42,671 nt of DNA from a virus (taxonomy: Duplodnaviria > Heunggongvirae > Uroviricota > Caudoviricetes), in IMG/VR virus record IMGVR_UViG_2529293144_000007; one strand, 5' to 3'. Shown here in pieces: positions 24,934-42,671 of this stretch; within the stretch, counting starts at the first letter, position 1; each line of letters opens with the position of its first letter. The translations under genes were made by a program, and so were the position numbers. Under the pieces are notes generated by a model. It saw only the letters and a program-made list of their open reading frames with translations, made no database searches and had not been told where the DNA came from.

Positions 24934-25380
24934 ATGAATAAAATGACTGTACTATTACTTAGCGCAACTATCATTTCAGGTTGTACTTCTTCCGTACCAT
25001 TAATAAAGAAAACTCAATCAGGAAAACCTGAGGGGGTTTATCAAAATACGACAAAAGATAAAGTCAAAGATGCTCTTGTGAATTACTGCAATAGTAGAGG
25101 GTTGATAATTTACAACGCGGATAACAGCAGTGTTATATGTGGTAAAGAACTGGAAGGCGGCTCTGCTGTTTTTGGACAAATGTTAATCGGCAATGCCTAT
25201 TCAACAACCCCGGTATCAAAAGTCAGATTTACTATCGCTCAACTTAATAACGATACAAAAGTGTGGGCCGATATGTGGATGGAAACTCAAATGGCAATGG
25301 GGCAAGTACAACAAATGGCTATAACAGACAACGCAAGCAAAAACACTATCCAACAACGTCTTGATGAATTAAAACCTTAA
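24934..25380 (+). CDS. lipoprotein moron, function unknown
   Basis: 148 aa with signal peptide and lipobox (LLLSATIISGC); AT-rich; opposite strand to the late genes. Confidence 0.75.
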   Translation: MNKMTVLLLSATIISGCTSSVPLIKKTQSGKPEGVYQNTTKDKVKDALVNYCNSRGLIIYNADNSSVICGKELEGGSAVFGQMLIGNAYSTTPVSKVRFTIAQLNNDTKVWADMWMETQMAMGQVQQMAITDNASKNTIQQRLDELKP

Positions 25381-25464: not shown

Positions 25465-25830
25465 CTAACGATCCATCTCTAGCTCAATTTCTAACATCAT
25501 TAACATGCCATCAACTACACCTTCAGCCTTTTGCAATAAACGCCCAACCCAGCAATCAGAACGCCCATGTTTACGGGCAAGCGCCATAAACGTCATACCA
25601 CCTACATAATAATCCACTAATAAATCGTGCAAATCGCTGTTGTTCTTTTTCAGGCGAGCCATGCACCCACAAATGATCATCGCGTCATCGTCACAACATT
25701 GCGGGCGGGATTTTACTTTTGAAGGGATTAGTCCTTTAAATCCTGCAGCAATAGACGACCAGGTGACATCCTCGTGATTATTTGCCACCCATGCACCCCA
25801 ACGTTCAAGAACCATTTGAATATCACGCAT
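25465..25830 (-). CDS. late-gene antitermination protein Q (phage 82 / QuuD-like)
   Basis: Sequence from [34 protein letters not shown] with Cys cluster ([12 protein letters not shown]), matching the recalled Q82/QuuD family. Confidence 0.85.
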
Positions 25831-25847
25831 CAACTTTCTCCACAAAA

Positions 25848-29518: not shown

Positions 29519-30456
29519 CCCCTGAATCCTGCCGGGATCTGGCTGTAGTCCACGTTGTCGTAACTGGCTTTGAAGTACGGGTCCTCGCGTTTTTCGGTGT
29601 ACGTGCTGACGGACGGCGATAAGCGCAGGGAAAGCTCATCCCATTTTTCCCGCAGCTTCGACGGGCTGAGCACGTTACGGCACCAGAACGGATCGCGGCT
29701 GACGCGGCTGTACATCTCGCAGATTTGTTTGTGAGTACGCCCATCCTGTACACACATCAGGCGAATTTCGTTTGCCCAGACTGTCCAGTTCGGTTCTTTG
29801 GGACGAACCACCTCGCCGTCACATTCGGCGGCCTGCTCGTACAGGGCAATGATTTTTTTCCAGAGCCACTGTGCGCAGGTCAAATCATCCTGCGTTCCCC
29901 ACTGGCGCTTTTTAGGGCTGAATACAACCGCATCAGGATGGCGAGTTAAAAAATCCTGTTCAGCCGTCTGCGTGTCCGGTTGCGAAGCGTCCGGACGAGA
30001 AGGTTTTTTATCTGACGGATCATGTTTTGATTTTACTGACGGATCCCCGCCAGATTCTGACGGGTGAAAACCCACTTTTTTGCCAGATTTCGACGCATCA
30101 AATTTTGACGGGTCAGATTTTGATGCGTCAGATTTTGACGGGTCAGAATCTGACAGTTGAGAAAATGCCGCTGCCTGAAGCTTCGCAACGTTAAGCTGAT
30201 AAACATTCGACGCATTGCGGTTACCCTGGCGACGCGCCTTACGCGTTAACCAGCCTTCTGCTTCCAGCCGTGCGATAGCCGTTCTGACGGTACTCATCCC
30301 CGCGCCAATCTGACGGGCAATGGTTTCAATTGATGGCCAGCACACACCTTCGTCATTACTGAAATCAGCCAGGCGGGCCATAATTGCCACGCTGGATAAC
30401 TTCATGCCTGATGCAGCGCAACCATCCCATACATAGCCGGTTAATTTAGTGCTCAT
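29515..30456 (-). CDS. replication initiation protein (O-like; N-terminal HTH, repeat-encoded linker, C-terminal domain)
   Basis: N-terminal HTH replication-initiator pattern (ARLADFSNDEGVCWPSIETIARQIGAGMSTVRTAIARLEAEGWL); central SDPSKSDASKSDPSKFDASKS linker encoded by DNA iterons. Confidence 0.75.
   Translation of the reverse strand: MSTKLTGYVWDGCAASGMKLSSVAIMARLADFSNDEGVCWPSIETIARQIGAGMSTVRTAIARLEAEGWLTRKARRQGNRNASNVYQLNVAKLQAAAFSQLSDSDPSKSDASKSDPSKFDASKSGKKVGFHPSESGGDPSVKSKHDPSDKKPSRPDASQPDTQTAEQDFLTRHPDAVVFSPKKRQWGTQDDLTCAQWLWKKIIALYEQAAECDGEVVRPKEPNWTVWANEIRLMCVQDGRTHKQICEMYSRVSRDPFWCRNVLSPSKLREKWDELSLRLSPSVSTYTEKREDPYFKASYDNVDYSQIPAGFRG
30005..30160. repeat. iteron array (candidate origin of replication) inside the replication initiator gene
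   Basis: Repeats of consensus roughly AGATTTTGACGGGTC; the last four copies are spaced at about 15 bp. Confidence 0.65.
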
Positions 30457-32774: not shown

Positions 32775-33254
32775 CTATTTGTCATTATTACACCTTTTTG
32801 ACCGAGGCAAATCTCCAGCAAACCATGCGATAACGCTATGCATGAATGATATTTCTGACTCATCAACACGTCCCAGCGCAATACAGGTCCGTTTGAACGC
32901 AGCATCTTGTAAAGATCTCCATGGATTACTATCAGCGTCTTGAACCTTTAAAAACCGAGTGCGTAGTTCGTCATCAGAAAGGGAGGAAAACTCAACAATC
33001 AACCTTTTATACTGTCGCATCTGTTCCTTTGATAAGCCAGCTTCCTGCCCAAATTGGTATACCAATTGAAGCACCGACAAAATAGCTACAGATGCGCCAA
33101 AAATAAACATATTGCTATATGGCGCAAAAACAGAAAAGCCCAAGACAATGAGAACAAGAGTTATGCTCTTGTCTATCCGATTTAAAAGGGTGTAATTCAT
33201 TTTCTCAAGAAAGAAAGAATAATGAATATCGAATGCTAGATCGTCTCGAGTCAT
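32775..33254 (-). CDS. hypothetical small membrane protein (2 TM) in the immunity region
   Basis: 159-aa AT-rich ORF with hydrophobic segments ITLVLIVLGFSVFAPY and FIFGASVAILSVLQLVY; weak RBS. Confidence 0.45.
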   Translation of the reverse strand: MTRDDLAFDIHYSFFLEKMNYTLLNRIDKSITLVLIVLGFSVFAPYSNMFIFGASVAILSVLQLVYQFGQEAGLSKEQMRQYKRLIVEFSSLSDDELRTRFLKVQDADSNPWRSLQDAAFKRTCIALGRVDESEISFMHSVIAWFAGDLPRSKRCNNDK

Positions 33255-35053: not shown

Positions 35054-35260
35054 ATGCTGAACCTCGATTGTGTTCCAATCTCAACTTATTGCAAAGAAAC
35101 TGGCGAAACTCCTGAAGCAATAAACAAACGTGTACAGCGCGGTGTTTGGCGTGAAGGTGTTCAGGTTTTAAAGGTTGAAGGCGTTAAGGAGAGGTGGATT
35201 GATCTTAGTGAGGTTGCAAAATGGGCCAGACAAAACTGCTCAAACTACCGCGCGGCGTAA
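35054..35260 (+). CDS. excisionase-like DNA-binding protein (putative Xis)
   Basis: Small basic protein immediately upstream of and overlapping int; start at MLNLD with GGAGAAA RBS. Confidence 0.55.
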   Translation: MLNLDCVPISTYCKETGETPEAINKRVQRGVWREGVQVLKVEGVKERWIDLSEVAKWARQNCSNYRAA

Positions 35261-36396
35261 CAATCAGGAAACACCGCCAGGGCGAAACGATCAATATAAC
35301 TTTCACCTACAAAGGAGTTAAATGTCGTGAGCCTCTTTCCAATCTGGAAGTAACACCAAAGAACATTAAATACGCCGAGCGCACACTCGGCGAAATTCAT
35401 AATAAGATCGAAAGGGGAACATTCATTTATGCGGAATATTTTCCCCGTTCTGCTCGTTTGAAAATTTTTGGTAATGCTGTTGCAGGCAAAACGGTAAAAA
35501 TGTACCTGGACGAATACCTTGAAATCTGCGAAACGAGAAAACTCTCACCCTCAACGATTGGTGGTTATAAAAAATGCCGTAGTGCGTTAGCCTCACTCCA
35601 CATTTGCCCTGCAAGTGAATTAACACCAGCAATCCTGAAAGCGTGGATTCAAAGCCAGAAAACGACCTTAAAAACAATTCGCAACCAGTTATCTTTCCTG
35701 CGGTCAGCACTTGATGAAGCCGTAACCGATGGGGTACTTCAAATTAACCCCGTATCGTTGGTAACTGCTTCGCGCTACCAAAGTGATAAGTCAGAAGCAG
35801 AAAGCAGCTACGTGGTTGATCCGCTATCACCAGCAGAAGTTGATGCATTACTAGCAGCAGCCGGAAACAAACAATGGGAAAATCTGTTCCGGTTCGCCAT
35901 ACATACAGGCCTGCGTAGTTCTGAATTATGTGCCCTTCGTTGGCGTGATATCGATTTTGTAGGGAAAACTGCCCACGTTCAGAACGCCAGTGTAGTTGGC
36001 GTAATCAAGGGGACAAAAACAAAAGCCGGTACACGAAAAGTTGAACTGAATGAGGAAGCAATGGCAGCTCTGACAAATCAGAAACCGTTCACGTTCATGA
36101 AGGACGCTACTGTCTTTGAAGATCCAAAAACCAATAAGCCGTGGGCAAGTGCTGATGCAATTAGAAAAAAAGCATGGGTCCCGACATTGAGAAAGGCAGG
36201 TATTCGATACAGAAACCCATATCAGACTAGGCATACATTCGCCACCAGCCATATCAGCCGGGGAACAAACCTTTTCTGGCTTGCAGCTCAAATGGGGCAT
36301 AAAGGGCCAGAGATGCTTTTTAGACACTATGGTCGGTATTTGAAGGAATATGACAACAATACATCTTTAAATAAATTGAAAACAATTAATAAATAG
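35221..36396 (+). CDS. tyrosine integrase (lambda Int family)
   Basis: 391 aa with N-terminal arm-binding-like region and C-terminal catalytic signature (RHTFAT ... HKGPEMLFRHYGRY). Confidence 0.9.
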   Translation: MGQTKLLKLPRGVTIRKHRQGETINITFTYKGVKCREPLSNLEVTPKNIKYAERTLGEIHNKIERGTFIYAEYFPRSARLKIFGNAVAGKTVKMYLDEYLEICETRKLSPSTIGGYKKCRSALASLHICPASELTPAILKAWIQSQKTTLKTIRNQLSFLRSALDEAVTDGVLQINPVSLVTASRYQSDKSEAESSYVVDPLSPAEVDALLAAAGNKQWENLFRFAIHTGLRSSELCALRWRDIDFVGKTAHVQNASVVGVIKGTKTKAGTRKVELNEEAMAALTNQKPFTFMKDATVFEDPKTNKPWASADAIRKKAWVPTLRKAGIRYRNPYQTRHTFATSHISRGTNLFWLAAQMGHKGPEMLFRHYGRYLKEYDNNTSLNKLKTINK

Positions 36397-36403
36397 ATAA
36401 TAA

Positions 36404-36429
36404 TCCCCATCAGTAAATACTGATGGGGA
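36404..36429. other. perfect 11-bp-stem hairpin immediately after int
   Basis: TCCCCATCAGT-AAAT-ACTGATGGGGA; overlaps the start region of the next ORF. Confidence 0.4.
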
Positions 36430-36437
36430 CTGAAAAG

Positions 36438-37235
36438 ATGTCAGGTAACATGACTACAATATTATCTTGCTTTGCTGCTCTTGTTTCTGCTGCGACTGCT
36501 ATATACGCAATCAAACAGTCGAACTTACAAAGAAGATTGTCATATAAGCCACAACTTTATATTGAGGATTACCGTGACAAATACTTTGCTCCAACTACTA
36601 ATACCTTCGACCATGGTATAAATGGCAGACCTACCTTTAATCTCCATGAACTTTCAATAATAAACATTGGAAATGGCTCAGCTCAAAATATAAAATACAA
36701 ATGGGTATATAATTATAGCAATGCTTTAAAGGACATTTCATCTATCATTGAAAAACTGGGAGCCTCAAAAAACAATAAAATTAATTTATTCAATTATGAA
36801 GTCGTTGAGCATAAAAAAATAATCATTAACGATAAATGTTTTAACATCCATTTCAATTTCAACGAGAAATATATATTACCTCAACATCAAATAGAAGGTA
36901 ATTTAAAAAACACAATAATACACTTGCCAATTATATTAACAACTGTACTATATAACTTGATTAATCTTAGATTATTAGCGGGTGAGACATTAGAAAGCGT
37001 TCATGGTCCTAAGCTAGTTATTACATACCAAGATTCAGGCGGCGCTCTCATCACTGATCATTTTGAGAGTGAATTTATTCTCAAATCTTCCACACAAAAT
37101 ACAAGTCAGACCATACAAAACGTTAGAATGACATTTAGGAAATTGGACCGTCATTGGACACAGCAATCACATCAATGGAGCCGTAAAAGTCACGCAGAAA
37201 CTACTGAAGAAAAAGAAATCAATTATTTCAGTTAG
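36438..37235 (+). CDS. AT-rich cargo protein of unknown function with N-terminal TM anchor
   Basis: About 266 aa from MSGNMTTILSCFAALVSAATAIYAI; located between int and the att fragment. Confidence 0.6.
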   Translation: MSGNMTTILSCFAALVSAATAIYAIKQSNLQRRLSYKPQLYIEDYRDKYFAPTTNTFDHGINGRPTFNLHELSIINIGNGSAQNIKYKWVYNYSNALKDISSIIEKLGASKNNKINLFNYEVVEHKKIIINDKCFNIHFNFNEKYILPQHQIEGNLKNTIIHLPIILTTVLYNLINLRLLAGETLESVHGPKLVITYQDSGGALITDHFESEFILKSSTQNTSQTIQNVRMTFRKLDRHWTQQSHQWSRKSHAETTEEKEINYFS

Positions 37236-37242
37236 TTATAAC

Positions 37243-37279
37243 ATTTCGGACATGGGTTCAACTCCCGCCAGCTCCACCA
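37243..37279 (+). other. ssrA (tmRNA) 3'-end fragment, candidate att core / prophage junction
   Basis: ATTTCGGACATGGGTTCAACTCCCGCCAGCTCCACCA matches the last ~37 nt of E. coli tmRNA as recalled, with two mismatches; upstream sequence is unrelated to tmRNA. Confidence 0.75.
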
Positions 37280-37313
37280 CTTTTTAGTTGTTTGAAGTTC
37301 AATGAAGTCTACT

Positions 37314-37347
37314 AAGCCCACACAGCACAAGCTCTGCGGGCTTTTTT
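37314..37347 (+). terminator. terminator-like hairpin after the ssrA fragment
   Basis: AAGCCC...GGGCTT inverted repeat followed by TTTTTT. Confidence 0.5.
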
Positions 37348-37444
37348 ACGTCTATTGTCGTCCAGTGAGAATTGCTGAGAACTACGAGTTATGGCACCCT
37401 GAATGGGACCCACTAAGAAGGGTCCAAAAACCGAGGGTCCCAAA

Positions 37445-38674
37445 ATGGCAAAAATCGCTAAGAAGCTCACTGACACTGAAATCAAAAGCACCAAGCCAGC
37501 CGATAAAGAAATCAACTTGTTTGACGGTGATGGTCTGATTCTACGAATCGCTCCTTTGGCGAAAGGAGGCAAGAAAAATTGGTATTTCAGGTATGCAGTA
37601 CCAGTGAGCAAGAAAAGAACCAAAATGAGCCTTGGGACATATCCTCACCTTACCCTTGCAAGAGCCAGAGCCTTACGTGATGAATATCTCTCCTTTCTGG
37701 CAAATGGTGTTGATCCCCAAATCCATAACAACGATAAGGCGAAGGCATTAAAGAGTGCTACTGAGCACACTCTCCAAGCCGTAGCGCGGAAATGGTTAGA
37801 TGAGAAGGTAAAGACATCAGGTATCTCACAAGACCATGCAGCAGACATCTGGCGCAGCTTAGAGAGAAATGTCTTTCCCGGTCTGGGTAATGTCCCTATC
37901 AATGAGATCCGACCTAAGCTCTTAAAACAACACCTTGATCCTATTGAGCAACGAGGCGTATTGGAAACTCTACGCCGTATCATTTCACGTCTGAATGAAA
38001 TCTTCCGGTGGGCAGCTACTGAAGAACTTATTGAGTTCAACCCGGCTGACAACCTTGGTCAAAGATTCAGTAAACCAAAAAAGCAAAATATGCCTGCCCT
38101 TCCCCCAAGCGAATTGCCAAGGTTTATGGAATCTTTGACGAATGCGTCAATCCGGTTGGAAACACGTATGCTAATTGAATGGCAATTGTTGACATGGGTT
38201 CGTCCGGGTGAAGCCGTTCGCGCAAGGTGGTCTGATATTGATACAACCAACAGCATTTGGAACATTCCTGCTGATTTCATGAAAATGAAAAAGCTTCACA
38301 AAGTTCCTTTGAGTAAAGAAGCTTTGCGCATCCTTGAATTAATGAAATCAATAAGTGGGCATAGAGAATGGGTTTTCCCCAGCATAAAAGCGCCTCTTAA
38401 TCATATGCATGAACAAACAGCCAACGCAGCTATCATCCGAATGGGGTTCGGAGGCGAGCTTGTAGCTCACGGTATGCGTTCTATTGCACGAACAGCGGCA
38501 GAGGAGTCTGGTAAATTCAGAGCTGAAGTTCTTGAGGCAGCGCTTGCCCACTCGAAAAAAGATGAAATTATCGCAGCATACAATCGTGCAGAATATCTGA
38601 TAGAGCGACAGAGTTTGATGCAATGGTGGAGTGATTACGTTCAAGCTCAAAGATCAAATGCTCTGGTAGCCTAA
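37445..38674 (+). CDS. P4-type tyrosine integrase (IntA-like)
   Basis: N-terminus MAKIAKKLTDTEIKSTKPADKEINLFDGDGL typical of P4/CP4-57 integrases; C-terminal catalytic region (HGMRSIARTAA). Confidence 0.85.
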   Translation: MAKIAKKLTDTEIKSTKPADKEINLFDGDGLILRIAPLAKGGKKNWYFRYAVPVSKKRTKMSLGTYPHLTLARARALRDEYLSFLANGVDPQIHNNDKAKALKSATEHTLQAVARKWLDEKVKTSGISQDHAADIWRSLERNVFPGLGNVPINEIRPKLLKQHLDPIEQRGVLETLRRIISRLNEIFRWAATEELIEFNPADNLGQRFSKPKKQNMPALPPSELPRFMESLTNASIRLETRMLIEWQLLTWVRPGEAVRARWSDIDTTNSIWNIPADFMKMKKLHKVPLSKEALRILELMKSISGHREWVFPSIKAPLNHMHEQTANAAIIRMGFGGELVAHGMRSIARTAAEESGKFRAEVLEAALAHSKKDEIIAAYNRAEYLIERQSLMQWWSDYVQAQRSNALVA

Positions 38675-38712
38675 GTATCAGAATAGCTAATATAATCCTG
38701 AAGGTAAAGAAA

Positions 38713-39129
38713 ATGGAAACCCTATTCAAAGTTTTTGAAAAATTTAGTTCCAGACCACTTTTTTTTATTTTTTTCGGACTCTCACTTTGTGAATTTTTTC
38801 AGAAACAATCTGTTCTGATGAATCCATCAGCAGATAACATCGCGAAATTATTCGCAGCCATGATATTAGTTGTTTTTTTTACTTGGGGATTTGAATGGCT
38901 AATCTTCAAGTTCAATGTAAACCTTGAACCTCATGATCAAGGCGATATTGGACCAACAATTGGAACGGCTACTTTAGCTGTATACTTAGTTTATGCCTTT
39001 CACTTTCTCAGTGAAAATCCTGAAGCATTAAATTTAAAGTTATTAACTAACTCTGGCTTTATATACAGCACAACTCTATTATTATTCTCATTAGAATGCA
39101 TGAAGCTTAGAAGACTTAAACAAAAATAA
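38713..39129 (+). CDS. hypothetical polytopic membrane protein
   Basis: 138-aa AT-rich ORF with several hydrophobic segments. Confidence 0.5.
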   Translation: METLFKVFEKFSSRPLFFIFFGLSLCEFFQKQSVLMNPSADNIAKLFAAMILVVFFTWGFEWLIFKFNVNLEPHDQGDIGPTIGTATLAVYLVYAFHFLSENPEALNLKLLTNSGFIYSTTLLLFSLECMKLRRLKQK

Positions 39130-39352
39130 ACAACATCATTGTGATGATAAATATAAAATAGGCATGGCGAAAAAAAATCACCACGCCTAAAATATAATAA
39201 TTATGGTAGCATCATTGATACATAATAATCCACACCAATCCTTGAGCTATACTGAGACGCTATAGCCTGATATCTTTCTGCATAACCAGTTCTCAGTTGA
39301 GATTTAAGTTTGAGTCGGACAGGAACATTTTGCACGTTGCCATCCATATTAC

Positions 39353-40969
39353 TTAAAAACACGGCAGAAATAATATTTTTTCTTCGCCATCAACTGTTGT
39401 TCCATGATTCAACACCACCATATAATCAACAACAGGAAGCGTTTTATCCCCTTCGAAAATAGAGAGATATTTTCTTTGATTTTTATGCATTACATATATA
39501 TATTTCGAATGTTCAGCAAATGGCAATGCTTTACTCTGACTGGCGTTAAAAAGCTCCAGAACTTTAATGAGCCTGTGCGGACTTAATCTTACATGGTGAG
39601 GGTCGTTACACTGAGTAGGAACCAAATCACATGCCGCAGATACACATAAATACCATTTGTTCGACTCTGTATCAAAGAAAATAGTGCCAGTAGAAATATG
39701 ACCATCTTCAAAATTCTTTGAAGACAAATTCATATTTAAAGCATGATACATTTCGTGATAAGTATCATTATTTGATGGCAGATCCATTTTTGAAGAGCAA
39801 TATTGGAGCAATGCAGCAACTCCGCTGTTAGCGTATTCATTTGAATAGCTATCAAAAACACTTTTGATAAATTCATCCAGCGTATTATTATTTTTAAGTC
39901 TTTGATAAAGCTCTTCTGATAAATTACCAAATACAAAGTCAATATTTCTACATCTAATATCAGGCGAGTCTGATTTTAATATCTCATTTAACCACGCAGC
40001 TTGACCGTAATGATCGTTAGCCAAATGATTTACAAAAGATAAAGCCTCAGCTTCGATTGCATTCTGAATTTCAGATTTTATTAACTGATAATAAGATGGT
40101 TTCCATTCAATGAGAGAATCATTGAGAGTTTGCCAAATCCTATCTCCATCGTTTTCATGATCATCTTGAACCTTATGAAATAGGGAGACAAAGATATTAC
40201 CACATTGAATCCATTTTACTCCGCTTTCATCACCCCGAATGACATTGCCAGATGTGTTGCTAGAAATAATTGCATTTCTAGACACAGCATATTCTGCAAT
40301 CATTTTTGCAATGAAGTTTTTATCCTTTTGATCCTCCAACACAGCATCATCATGTATTAATCTTTTAATTCTTCTACAAGGCTTACTGTCTTTAATATAG
40401 GCTATTGTTTCATCTCTTGTGAGAGCTTTATTACCATTATCATTTAAGTTCGGTAATACAACGTCTTCCCAATAACTTTGGACATCTTCATTATCGTAGT
40501 CAATGATCAAGCTGTTGATATCCAGAGCACCTTTGAGAGTCGATGATATCTGCATCCAAACCGTTTCTAAATTCTCTCTAGTATATATTACAATCATTTT
40601 TAAATGATCGGAGTCTTTCAAATCTTGTAATAGTTTAAGTGTTTTATCAGGTGCATTATTATCAAGATGATAATCTACAATAATAAGATCTGATTTTCTA
40701 ATCCGATCCACATCGAAATTAACAGAACCATTGTCAACATCACAAATCATATTTTTAGATTGAAAAAAGCTCTCAAGAGTAGCGGCTCGTTTAGATGAGT
40801 CAATTTTGTTGTAGTCTAAATCAACTTCGTTATTCAACGCCCTGATTGATTCAGAATACGTCAGAAAATCGTCATCAATCATGACAACGGAACGAATTGC
40901 ATTTTCGCAGAAAGTTTTCTGGACAAGAGAATTATAATTTGCCACTGTCATATTAGAACTCCACTCCAT
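39353..40969 (-). CDS. receiver (REC)-domain protein with large uncharacterised C-terminal domain (putative effector)
   Basis: N-terminal REC-like signature: VVMIDDD acidic pair, DLIIVDYHL candidate phospho-Asp strand, MIVIYT; about 380 aa C-terminal region without recognised motifs. Confidence 0.6.
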   Translation of the reverse strand: MEWSSNMTVANYNSLVQKTFCENAIRSVVMIDDDFLTYSESIRALNNEVDLDYNKIDSSKRAATLESFFQSKNMICDVDNGSVNFDVDRIRKSDLIIVDYHLDNNAPDKTLKLLQDLKDSDHLKMIVIYTRENLETVWMQISSTLKGALDINSLIIDYDNEDVQSYWEDVVLPNLNDNGNKALTRDETIAYIKDSKPCRRIKRLIHDDAVLEDQKDKNFIAKMIAEYAVSRNAIISSNTSGNVIRGDESGVKWIQCGNIFVSLFHKVQDDHENDGDRIWQTLNDSLIEWKPSYYQLIKSEIQNAIEAEALSFVNHLANDHYGQAAWLNEILKSDSPDIRCRNIDFVFGNLSEELYQRLKNNNTLDEFIKSVFDSYSNEYANSGVAALLQYCSSKMDLPSNNDTYHEMYHALNMNLSSKNFEDGHISTGTIFFDTESNKWYLCVSAACDLVPTQCNDPHHVRLSPHRLIKVLELFNASQSKALPFAEHSKYIYVMHKNQRKYLSIFEGDKTLPVVDYMVVLNHGTTVDGEEKILFLPCF

Positions 40970-42671
40970 TGAACTGGATCACAAAATTAGCGCCATCTTT
41001 TATTAAATAGTTATCGCCTTCATCAGGTTCTGAATACCATATTTTATGATGTGCAACAGCAAGGTTTTCTCGACATAGATACAGACCTACCCCATGTCCA
41101 TTTGCTCTTTTGCTATAAAATAGTTCAAATAGTCGCGGGATATCATCGGTATCAATTGCCGGACCAGAATTTGCTATGATAACCAAAGAATTCACAAAAC
41201 CAATCTTTATGAGCCTATTATTTGACAGACTGACCCAATACATTGCATTGTTGATAATATTAGTAAAAACAGGATAGATCCTTGATGGTATATCTGTTAT
41301 TGCGATTTGCTTAAACTCTTCACTAAATTCAATAGTTATTCGTTGCCGTTCGAAACGCTCCCCAAAGAACTTCAGGACATAATCCATGATATTTTTTCCA
41401 GTTATTCTCTGCCTGGATTGATAACCTGATATTTTCAAAGGTGATAAGAAACGTATTTGTTGAGTAAGCGATCTGTGAGCATTTAACGCCAATGAAAAAC
41501 CAGGGTGTTCTTTTACAGAAGTAGGAAGAGAGTTTAGTCCTCTGGTTACCATAGAATCCATTTCTTCAAGTTCATGAGATATTATCTCAACACTAATACC
41601 TAACTGTGCAAGCGCGTTTAAACTTTTAGCTTTTTCTTCAAAATATGAGCGTTCTTCTTCAGATAATGAGAATGCTGAATCTAAGTTTATACCTTCAAAT
41701 AATCTATCGAGACCTTTTATTATTGATTGATATTTGAAAGTTAGGGTATCAACTGACTCAACATATAAACTATCGAGCAAATTAAACACATTTTCAATTT
41801 GTGAATCATTATCTATTGAATCAACAACTGATATAGTTTTAGCATAATAATCACTTCGATCAACCTTTATTTCATCGGCCCATTTTTTTAAAAGAGAATG
41901 TATCTTCTCCTCTATCGTGTTATTAAACTTAGTTAGTTTAGAATTAATAATACCTTGATTTTTTTCAAGGTGATTTTTCGCTGACAATGAAGGCTCAAGT
42001 TTATTTAATTCAGAATCAAGTTTATTAATTGCTAACTTCATTTGTAGAATATACGCAGAGAACTCATTAAATTTATCTCTGTAGTCTCTATATTTCTCTT
42101 CATACATTCCAAGTTTTGGAGGTTTGATAGGCGTTTTAATTTCACTGCGCAACGCATCTAAGTTTGTAAGATCACTGTCTATAATTTTAAGATAGTTTAA
42201 ATCTAACGAACCATCAGTTTTATCAAGCTTAGTTTTCAGCCTTTTAACAGCCTCCAAGGAAGCATCAAGAACTGGTGTCTGATTCTTCAAAGCTTCTGAA
42301 AAACTTTTTTGTGTTGATTTTCGAGCTTGTTGTTGAGCAGATTTTCTTAACTCTTTTTCACGCTTAACTTGTTCTAAAAGCTCTTTACGGTCATCAGAAC
42401 GTGAACCAAAAAATCTATCAGCAAGTTCAGTTAACAAATTAGATATAATAGTTTTCAGTTCTCTTGCAGCCTGGTTTCTTATGAATCCCTCTCTCCCCGA
42501 CTTATCTTTCAGCTCTTTATTACTGGATTGAGTAATTCCAATATAACCAAAAATCCTTCTATTAGACCAATAATATCGCCCTGCATTCCATGAACGTCTT
42601 TCTTCTATCTGGAAGAAATCATTATCTACTCGACCATAAGGTAATACTCTCAAGCTATCCCTAAAAATCAT
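40953..42671 (-). CDS. histidine-kinase-like protein (coiled coil, H-box, HATPase_c); may continue beyond the window end
   Basis: H-box-like ISHELEEMDS about 105 aa upstream of N-box FTNIINNAMYW, G1-like ANSGPAID and G2 GHGVGLY; the Met at the window edge may be internal. Confidence 0.6.
   Translation of the reverse strand: MIFRDSLRVLPYGRVDNDFFQIEERRSWNAGRYYWSNRRIFGYIGITQSSNKELKDKSGREGFIRNQAARELKTIISNLLTELADRFFGSRSDDRKELLEQVKREKELRKSAQQQARKSTQKSFSEALKNQTPVLDASLEAVKRLKTKLDKTDGSLDLNYLKIIDSDLTNLDALRSEIKTPIKPPKLGMYEEKYRDYRDKFNEFSAYILQMKLAINKLDSELNKLEPSLSAKNHLEKNQGIINSKLTKFNNTIEEKIHSLLKKWADEIKVDRSDYYAKTISVVDSIDNDSQIENVFNLLDSLYVESVDTLTFKYQSIIKGLDRLFEGINLDSAFSLSEEERSYFEEKAKSLNALAQLGISVEIISHELEEMDSMVTRGLNSLPTSVKEHPGFSLALNAHRSLTQQIRFLSPLKISGYQSRQRITGKNIMDYVLKFFGERFERQRITIEFSEEFKQIAITDIPSRIYPVFTNIINNAMYWVSLSNNRLIKIGFVNSLVIIANSGPAIDTDDIPRLFELFYSKRANGHGVGLYLCRENLAVAHHKIWYSEPDEGDNYLIKDGANFVIQFNGVEF

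Follow-up and report, generated by a model that had tools for sequence, protein, structure and literature searches.

Several temperate phages carry single-pass membrane proteins that exclude other phages or abort their infection, among them HK97 gp15, P22 SieA, lactococcal Sie2009 and AbiP, the last of which is described as having an N-terminal anchor and a cytosolic domain. The gene described here is an open reading frame (ORF) between the integrase gene (int) and the attachment site (att) of a prophage in the IMG/VR virus record IMGVR_UViG_2529293144_000007; the whole stretch of 42,671 nt that was analysed is referred to below as the window, and the gene and its product as the cargo gene and the cargo protein. 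It resembles the exclusion and abortive-infection (Abi) genes in being an AT-rich prophage moron near the integration module, whose product has a single N-terminal anchor. It differs from them in that the cargo protein exhibits no sequence or profile similarity to their Pfam or PADLOC models, is predicted to have a generic Ig-like fold and to expose its folded domain on the cytoplasmic side of the membrane.

At the level of RNA, a parallel is offered by the fold-back inhibition of IS10/Tn10, which Davis, Simons and Kleckner reportedly described in 1985 and by which translation of the transposase is inhibited on transcripts from outside promoters. The locus analysed here shares with IS10 an upstream segment that pairs with the ribosome binding site (RBS), found in 20 variants, and a predicted promoter of its own, placed so that its transcripts lack the 5' arm. 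It differs from IS10 in that the outside transcription is that of the phage's xis-int operon, in that the gene is prophage cargo and not a transposase, and in that no counterpart of the antisense RNA-OUT is evident. Lambda sib/tI is likewise a stem-loop directly 3' of the integrase gene and near att, which could tell transcripts apart by their origin. However, integration separates sib, which is on the far side of attP, from int, whereas the hairpin described here (36404-36429) is on the int side of the core (37245-37279), which is not the position of a sib-type retroregulator, and it stays linked to int in both states. Moreover, sib is a long RNase III substrate, whereas here the stem has 11-14 bp, with no U-tract on the int strand and with a 3' arm that is the Shine-Dalgarno sequence (SD) of the next gene.

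The position of the gene recalls the P2/P4 hotspots in which temperate phages and satellites carry their defences (Rousset et al. 2022, PMC9122126), with which it shares a fixed place between conserved phage genes where unrelated cassettes, including AbiL, alternate. It differs from them in belonging to another phage group, with the slot at the int-att junction of ssrA-integrating lambdoid prophages, and in that one hypervariable family with a conserved regulatory module fills this slot in 23 of the 31 IMG/VR loci (those retrieved with the family query; there are 33 family contigs in total).

The cargo cassette

The window is a piece of the E. coli chromosome, of which positions 1-37279 are occupied by a lambdoid prophage with a tyrosine integrase at its end. 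The features of the int-att junction are:

35221..36396, + strand: tyrosine integrase of the ssrA-specific type, 391 aa (Pfam Arm-DNA-bind_2, 3.4e-23, and Phage_integrase, 4.8e-17; PHROG integrase)
36376..36404, + strand: predicted sigma-70 promoter with -35 TTGAAA at 36376-36381, a 17-nt spacer and -10 AATAAT at 36399-36404 (in silico, 10/12 consensus match)
36404..36429, + strand: perfect hairpin TCCCCATCAGT-AAAT-ACTGATGGGGA, 11-bp stem, 4-nt loop (seen in the sequence)
36438..37235, + strand: cargo coding sequence with ATG start, 265 aa, WP_000016409.1 ('hypothetical protein' in RefSeq), member of phrog_7259
37245..37279, + strand: attR core, 35 nt, a copy of the 3' end of ssrA (tmRNA), with an exact 25-mer match at 37255-37279
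37329..37347, + strand: intrinsic terminator of the displaced ssrA locus, AAGCTCTGCGGGCTT+TTTTAC (terminator scan; kept in the related loci L003 and L016)

The int-att interval of the window contains a single ORF. The attR core lies 849 nt from the int stop codon, and an intact ssrA (the tmRNA gene) is present at the opposite end of the prophage in the source genome; the same core also lies 3' of the family gene in 12 of the other loci that were compared. An earlier note on this DNA, made from the letters alone, had placed an ORF of about 266 aa between int and att, and the ORF does lie between the integrase and the ssrA-copy attR, with 265 aa if read from the ATG at 36438. A longer version from the first ATG (36423..37235) would have 270 aa, and another in-frame ATG occurs at 36450; alignments of the family, together with the distance to the GGGGA at 36425-36429, favour 36438 over 36423 as the likely start codon. 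The note's contrast in composition with the neighbouring genes was borne out (32.5% GC, against 44.1% in the integrase and 52.4% in the prophage part 1-35220), and the coordinates that it gave for the perfect 11-bp hairpin were exact. Its view that the hairpin overlaps the start region is right for the upstream in-frame ATG at 36423, which the hairpin covers, and wrong for the likely start at 36438, 8 nt before which the hairpin ends. The only terminator that the scan identified for the gene is that of the displaced ssrA locus at 37329-37347, which would stop its transcripts in the prophage state. Atypical composition, combined with presence or absence among otherwise related phages (sister prophages carry other cassettes), marks the gene as a moron. 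The cargo gene is a real gene, and neither the ORF nor the hairpin is due to chance; the region forms a cargo cassette that is complete in itself, carried by a lambdoid prophage of the ssrA-integrating type.

The promoter-hairpin module

The predicted promoter straddles the int stop codon: its -35 element falls within the last int codons, its -10 element lies just beyond the stop, and the final AAT of the -10 forms the base of the hairpin in all 20 distinct variants of the int-gene junction. All 20 exhibit a TTGxxx -35, a 17-nt spacer and an (A/G)ATAAT -10, and the spacing is unchanged even in variants with the stop codon moved by 3 nt. No other perfect inverted repeat of 11 nt or more with closely spaced arms occurs in the window, and the hairpin folds with a z of -5.5 relative to shuffled sequence. 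Its 5' arm is pyrimidine-rich and anti-SD-like, and its 3' arm holds the SD-like GGGGA (36425-36429); among the 20 variants the stem length is 11-14 bp, and the 3' arm is always purine-rich (GGGGA, GAGGA or GGAGG) and placed 2-11 nt ahead of the start codon. The inner part of the stem varies strongly in sequence and yet remains complementary. In 17 register-aligned variants 90.2% of the cells are paired and 9 of the 12 pairs are altered on both sides, a result matched by none of 500 shuffles and well above the slid controls (54% paired at most), in an alignment that is anchored on structure and register and is biased towards structure. The wobble pairs (14 of 15 are U in the 5' arm and G in the 3' arm of the + strand) and the greater stability of the + strand folds (mean -17.1 vs. 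-14.6 kcal/mol on the - strand; more stable in 14 of the 20 variants) indicate that the structure acts in the sense RNA. Judged by these variants, the hairpin is a conserved, covarying RNA element of the + strand, with the Shine-Dalgarno sequence as its 3' arm and the -10 as its base, and the module, in which the SD would be sequestered, is newly described and well supported.

The layout suggests how the origin of a transcript could decide its translation. Transcripts from the gene's own promoter would start about 7 nt after the -10 (near 36411), inside the 5' arm, and would consequently lack the hairpin, leave the SD free and be translated, whereas xis-int read-through transcripts, abundant after induction, would carry the full hairpin with the RBS buried. 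The cargo protein would thus be made in the lysogen from its own promoter and would not be over-made during the phage's own lytic growth. Modelling gives the SD arm a probability of 0.07 of being unpaired on read-through RNA, as against 0.45-0.51 on RNA with a start 6-9 nt after the -10. Hiding of the RBS is probably limited to transcripts reading through from int. We infer both the translational gating and the use of the promoter from the layout, with the IS10 fold-back as a model; such gating would make sense if the membrane protein were toxic in large amounts or disturbed the phage itself.

Could the hairpin be chiefly a terminator or RNA-stability element, which ends or stabilises the int mRNA on the + strand or terminates transcripts of the - strand? 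It begins 7 nt past the int stop codon, in the window itself the - strand version of the stem has a slight edge in stability, and on that strand (and solely there) the scan reports it as terminator-like, with 13 pairs and the T-rich tail ATTATCTATT, as it also does in Klebsiella. However, this tail is nothing but the complement of the conserved -10 hexamer, the U-G wobbles of the + strand are A-C mismatches on the - strand, and the + strand folds are the more stable in most variants. On the + strand the stem is followed by CTGAAAAGATG, with no T-run as in a rho-independent terminator, and its 3' arm is always the SD at a short distance from the start codon. A stem of 11-14 bp is also too short for a classical RNase III site. 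We regard a terminator or stability element as an unlikely main role for the hairpin, though one compatible with the gate, and rank the - strand terminator and the RNase III substrate below sequestration of the SD.

The module is lacking in E. coli CFT073, which has other cargo in the slot and a plain terminator spanning the int stop codon, and no equivalent hairpin was found for the family genes that follow a P2-type integrase or lie beside rusA; thus, the element belongs to the ssrA-integrase cassette rather than to the gene as such. In a Cedecea prophage remnant with a dead integrase, the 5' arm of the hairpin has decayed and the SD (AGGAG) is retained.

Family and predicted fold and topology of the cargo protein

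Profile searches assigned the cargo protein to a single family, phrog_7259, which has no described function (E 5.5e-140, 466 bits, residues 3-270 of the 270-aa ORF, profile positions 1-277 of 277); the match is full-length, and the wider family collected here is much more diverse. A word-indexed search returned just 8 clusters, from E. coli and Klebsiella, and an exhaustive profile search of 1.84 billion representatives returned 270 clusters with E<=1e-3 (57 with E<=1e-10), nearly all of 240-290 aa. No match to the cargo protein was found in PADLOC-DB v2 or NCBIfam, and Pfam gave sub-threshold noise only, including Cloacin_immun (15.7 bits, cutoff 25) and TACO1, both of which were discarded on this ground. 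Among the 101 family members aligned no Pfam family recurs, and the family profile has no sequence match in the PDB. The earlier statement that the protein has no recognisable domain therefore stands as far as Pfam, NCBIfam and PADLOC are concerned. Of the remote-homology search and structure prediction that the earlier note had proposed, the former yielded the phrog_7259 match and the latter a confident model, and neither identified anything functional. A literature search found no paper citing WP_000016409, and recent papers on prophage defence (the GiPD474 ATPase, the HEPN protein HepS) concern proteins unrelated to it.

The AlphaFold model, built from the 101-sequence alignment (pLDDT 92.7, pTM 0.83), comprises a helix (residues 3-35), a β-sandwich (about 38-238) with two inserted helices, and a C-terminal helix (about 239-265). 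In this model the sandwich appears as a generic Ig-like fold. The parts of the protein map to the DNA as follows:

36456..36512, + strand: single N-terminal transmembrane (TM) helix, about residues 7-25 (Kyte-Doolittle 1.95; helix in the AlphaFold model)
36549..37151, + strand: predicted Ig-like β-sandwich, about residues 38-238, the hypervariable part of the family (model)
37152..37232, + strand: predicted C-terminal helix, residues 239-265, overlapping the DNA block conserved beside the att core (model)

The one N-terminal TM helix proposed before is confirmed by hydropathy and by the single hydrophobic helix of the model. Its small residues S17, A18 and A21 are conserved, and the basic motif KQSxLQRRLSYKPQ comes after the helix. 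Other conserved positions are the juxtamembrane Q31-R32...P38, the turn motif N-I-G-x-G-x-A-x-N (N76, G78, G80, A82), W89 and Y-x-D199-x-G-G; they appear to be structural, and no catalytic signature was seen in the family alignments. In 99 of the 101 members K and R are more frequent after the hydrophobic helix than before it (mean 3.63 vs. 0.42). Because of this excess the positive-inside rule predicts an N-out/C-in topology in the inner membrane, with a short periplasmic N-terminus and a cytoplasmic sandwich; the same charge pattern argues against a Sec signal peptide and against a type IV pilin-like leader.

Probable overlap of the gene end with attP

About 85 nt before the att core are conserved as DNA, third codon positions included, across loci with unrelated gene bodies. 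This block encodes a tail motif, IRKSYxDFxxEHDFNKNR, that is specific to the ssrA-integrase context. It contains a candidate arm-type site of the integrase (Int), GGAGCCGT, at 37177-37184, within the cargo gene. In the attP rebuilt from both prophage ends, the motif GGA[TG][AC]CG[CT] is found at -78 (window position 37177), +117 and +128, against a background of 11 occurrences on both strands of the whole window; the motif was found by eye and both its definition and its statistics are post hoc. A search for exact 8-9-mer arm sites returned palindromes only. The distribution of the motif suggests that Int arm-type sites occur within the cargo coding sequence, and that the last ~85 nt of the gene overlap att-adjacent DNA which probably holds them.

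Distribution and evolution

The gene is not a one-off moron: it belongs to a sizeable family (the 270 representative clusters mentioned above) tied to the type of integrase, the same 390/391-aa enzyme being encoded immediately 5' of the family gene in 23 of the 31 IMG/VR loci. The order xis-int-gene-att(ssrA) is kept, with protein identity as low as 23%, in loci from E. coli, Klebsiella and E. coli/Citrobacter, and the family is also present in Klebsiella, Citrobacter and Cedecea prophages. The sole isolated phage with a member is Escherichia phage LLS, whose gene 31 adjoins the annotated attP; the annotation of the phage has an attP and a tmRNA pseudogene at the same place. Family genes occur alone in three phage positions: two behind an integrase, of either the ssrA or the P2 type, and one next to rusA, in a different lambdoid phage. 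No conserved partner gene was found across the loci examined, which makes the gene a stand-alone cargo. In a decayed prophage of Cedecea neteri almost everything else is gone: what is left is ssrA, the AbiTii gene of the other end and the family gene, both intact, plus a 3' piece of int and a degenerate attR.

Window positions 36300-37400 are 100% identical in E. coli strain 3985 and several other strains. The cargo allele is carried by about 8-10 of 5426 complete E. coli genomes, and the integrase type by 396 of them (~7%). In AR436 (L002, 4685-5893) and AR_0374, ISVsa5 (IS4-like) is inserted in the 5' part of the cargo gene, and the prophage, int and att are otherwise intact. A search of genome contigs for related loci by way of conserved stretches found nothing.

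When DNA identity is calculated per 60-nt bin, it is ~65-93% in int, falls to 35-50% within the gene and rises again over the last ~85 nt and the att core. In the family as a whole the middle is hypervariable and both ends are conserved, as are int and att. For the cargo gene, dN/dS amounts to 0.42 and 0.31 in the two pairs with less saturation (a third pair, saturated in dS, gives 0.23), as against 0.03-0.07 for int; by these ratios the gene is under purifying selection, which is weaker than that on int. Between the window and locus L010, dS is 0.11 in the gene and 1.23 in int. The gene is thus far younger there than int, and the cassette has therefore moved between phages, taking the final ~250 nt of int with it.

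The int-att slot in sister prophages

The slot was compared in a sample of sister E. coli prophages with the same integrase family, with the following contents:

Ecol_AZ146: a divergent member of the family (hhalign probability 100%)
W619: AbiLi/AbiLii (PADLOC 4e-101 and 5e-29)
CFT073 (L019 683-1871): an unrelated convergent pair, a 271-aa ORF and a 127-aa weakly HEPN-like ORF
UTI89 (L066 3665-5535): a STAS-like trio
O103 strain WL1467 (L068 3927-5849): a ParA-like trio

The claim that the int-att position hosts cargo thus agrees with the relatives, and as judged from these gene contents the slot of ssrA-integrating prophages is a cargo hotspot. The 271-aa ORF of CFT073 was considered as an inverted member of the family and dropped (hhalign probability 0.2%). 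The cassettes of CFT073, UTI89 and WL1467, mostly unannotated, are further candidates for uncharacterised prophage cargo.

At the other end of the prophage of strain 3985 (L018 4278-8271), beside the intact ssrA, there is a 306-aa protein with an AbiTii domain (PADLOC AbiTii 1.6e-32), as well as a STM2767/STM2766 helicase pair; thus, defence-type cargo is found on both flanks of attP. The AbiTii protein is 92% identical in Cedecea neteri. The adjacency in Cedecea had suggested an obligate partnership between AbiTii and the cargo protein, which was rejected on three grounds. In Cedecea the locus is what remains of a prophage with an internal deletion; in phage LLS the far side of attP carries a Bro-N gene; and of 12 IMG/VR contigs that encode close relatives of AbiTii, just one also appears in the set of 33 family contigs. 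In three loci from Klebsiella and E. coli (L003, L006, L010), a P4-like satellite (Psu, Ogr/Delta) lies beyond the attR core, and its own hotspot contains either DUF4435 with AAA_15/21 (PARIS-like) or a protein with weak NACHT-type Pfam matches. Two elements, a phage and a satellite, are thus lined up at the ssrA locus, and both bring defence cargo.

Possible functions

A role in defence, exclusion or virulence is suggested by the location, the hypervariability and the architecture. The reading that we put first, tentatively and at a little less than an even chance, is that of an anti-phage or exclusion protein expressed in the lysogen, translated only from its own promoter and silenced on int read-through. 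The conserved TM and juxtamembrane segment would be an output or assembly module and the fast-diverging sandwich a recognition module; the protein would bind a variable component of the invader at the inner face of the membrane, and the binding would then block infection (exclusion) or set off membrane damage (abortive infection). We lean slightly towards a sensor-effector, Abi-like mode, because the sandwich is predicted to be cytoplasmic. A protective role is favoured by the combination of a conserved TM face with a fast-diverging, non-catalytic binding domain predicted to be cytoplasmic, by the stand-alone occurrence and low G+C content, by the retention of the gene in the decayed Cedecea prophage, and by the presence of AbiL in the same slot elsewhere. 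The more ambitious proposal, that the family represents a new class of single-protein, membrane-tethered phage sensors with Ig-like recognition, a TM response, a hairpin-embedded promoter and a 3' end that doubles as Int arm-binding attP, is considerably more doubtful.

Several observations count against a protective protein under such a gate. PADLOC, Pfam, NCBIfam, the PDB profile comparison and fold searches yield nothing specific on its function. A place in a hotspot amounts to no more than guilt by association, and not every cassette of the slot can be recognised as defence. Many classical exclusion proteins act periplasmically, so that a cytoplasmic domain fits less well, and the topology itself has the positive-inside rule as its one support. 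The dN/dS ratio of the gene is below 1, and conserved ends with a variable middle can also be produced by cassette exchange through flanking homology, with no diversifying selection. As to the gate, the structural bias of the hairpin alignment has to be borne in mind, and the transcription start of the cargo gene is known from prediction only; if transcription started upstream of the hairpin, the RBS would always be masked and another activator would be required.

Or perhaps the gene encodes a lysogenic-conversion or fitness factor unrelated to defence, whose TM helix and predicted cytoplasmic binding domain would let it modulate, for example, virulence, the envelope or some protein in the inner membrane of the host? 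No signature of a defence family is present in the cargo protein, its conserved TM face might serve for docking on a host membrane protein, and the slot also holds trios (ParA-like, STAS-like) that do not look like defence. However, conserved host targets would not be expected to give such variation of the binding domain between similar prophages, a sister prophage has AbiL in the slot, and the gene is rare in E. coli; we hold this explanation to be unlikely.

A service to the phage's own cycle, as an accessory of integration or excision or in the lysis-lysogeny decision, would agree with the position directly after the same integrase (in the 23 of 31 IMG/VR loci and in all Enterobacteriaceae loci examined) and with the 3' end, which overlaps conserved att-proximal DNA with a repeated motif. 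Yet sister prophages with the same integrase family do without the gene and have other cassettes instead, two strains keep the prophage with the gene interrupted by ISVsa5, other members follow a P2-type integrase or lie beside rusA, and the gene persists in a remnant with a dead integrase, which together make such a role very improbable. Least probable of all is the membrane toxin of an addiction module, restrained by the hairpin or an antisense RNA and stabilising the prophage: a small single-pass membrane protein with a strongly sequestered RBS and promoter-like sites on the - strand within the 5' part of its gene might be taken for one, but 265 aa with a large folded domain are unlike type I toxins, promoter-like matches are expected in AT-rich DNA and here are not conserved in position in other loci, and there is no conserved antitoxin partner. 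An anti-phage or exclusion protein remains our first, tentative choice, and the gene is best classed as prophage moron/exclusion-type cargo under a proposed fold-back translational control.

Other features of the window

On the outer side of attR, the window continues into an adjoining CP4-57-like island (37403-42671):

37403..38674, + strand: second integrase, of the P4 type (Pfam Arm-DNA-bind_3, Phage_int_M, Phage_integrase)
38713-39129: hydrophobic ORF of 138 aa
39353-40969, - strand: ORF with Response_reg_2 (PF19192), frameshifted according to RefSeq
40953-42671, - strand: ORF with HATPase_c/HEF_HK, overlapping the Response_reg_2 ORF

The last two form a kinase-like/receiver pair, which is also present after ssrA in Klebsiella (L008) and in E. 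coli (L016, L017); PADLOC gives no significant match for this pair, which may be an uncatalogued conflict system.

Within the prophage, the + strand ORF at 24934-25380 (148 aa, ~37% GC, on the strand opposite to its neighbours) has a lipoprotein signal (LSATIISGC) and looks like a second moron, e.g. a Cor/Bor-type lipoprotein; its neighbours are a methyltransferase-like ORF and a 126-aa ORF (25465-25845, - strand). An ORF at 32775-33254 (- strand, 159 aa, 40-42% GC) with hydrophobic segments, assigned to phrog_6315 (unknown function), lies beside a LexA/cI-like repressor gene and is a candidate for another cargo of the lysogeny region. At 30084-30158, within a replication-initiator-like gene, overlapping 30-nt repeats with 15-nt spacing and CAGATTTTGACGGGT-like units look like iterons of a lambdoid origin.

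Implications

Should its function be confirmed, the family would join the single-gene systems of defence or exclusion as a new member, unrelated by homology to those already catalogued, and its allele series, with conserved ends and a variable sandwich, offers a ready set for the mapping of specificity. The int-att junction of ssrA-integrating lambdoid prophages would, if the proposal is true, be a defence hotspot that can be mined. The promoter-in-hairpin design, if true, would let a prophage express its cargo in the lysogen and leave it untranslated on its own induction transcripts, which bears on how prophages avoid self-targeting.

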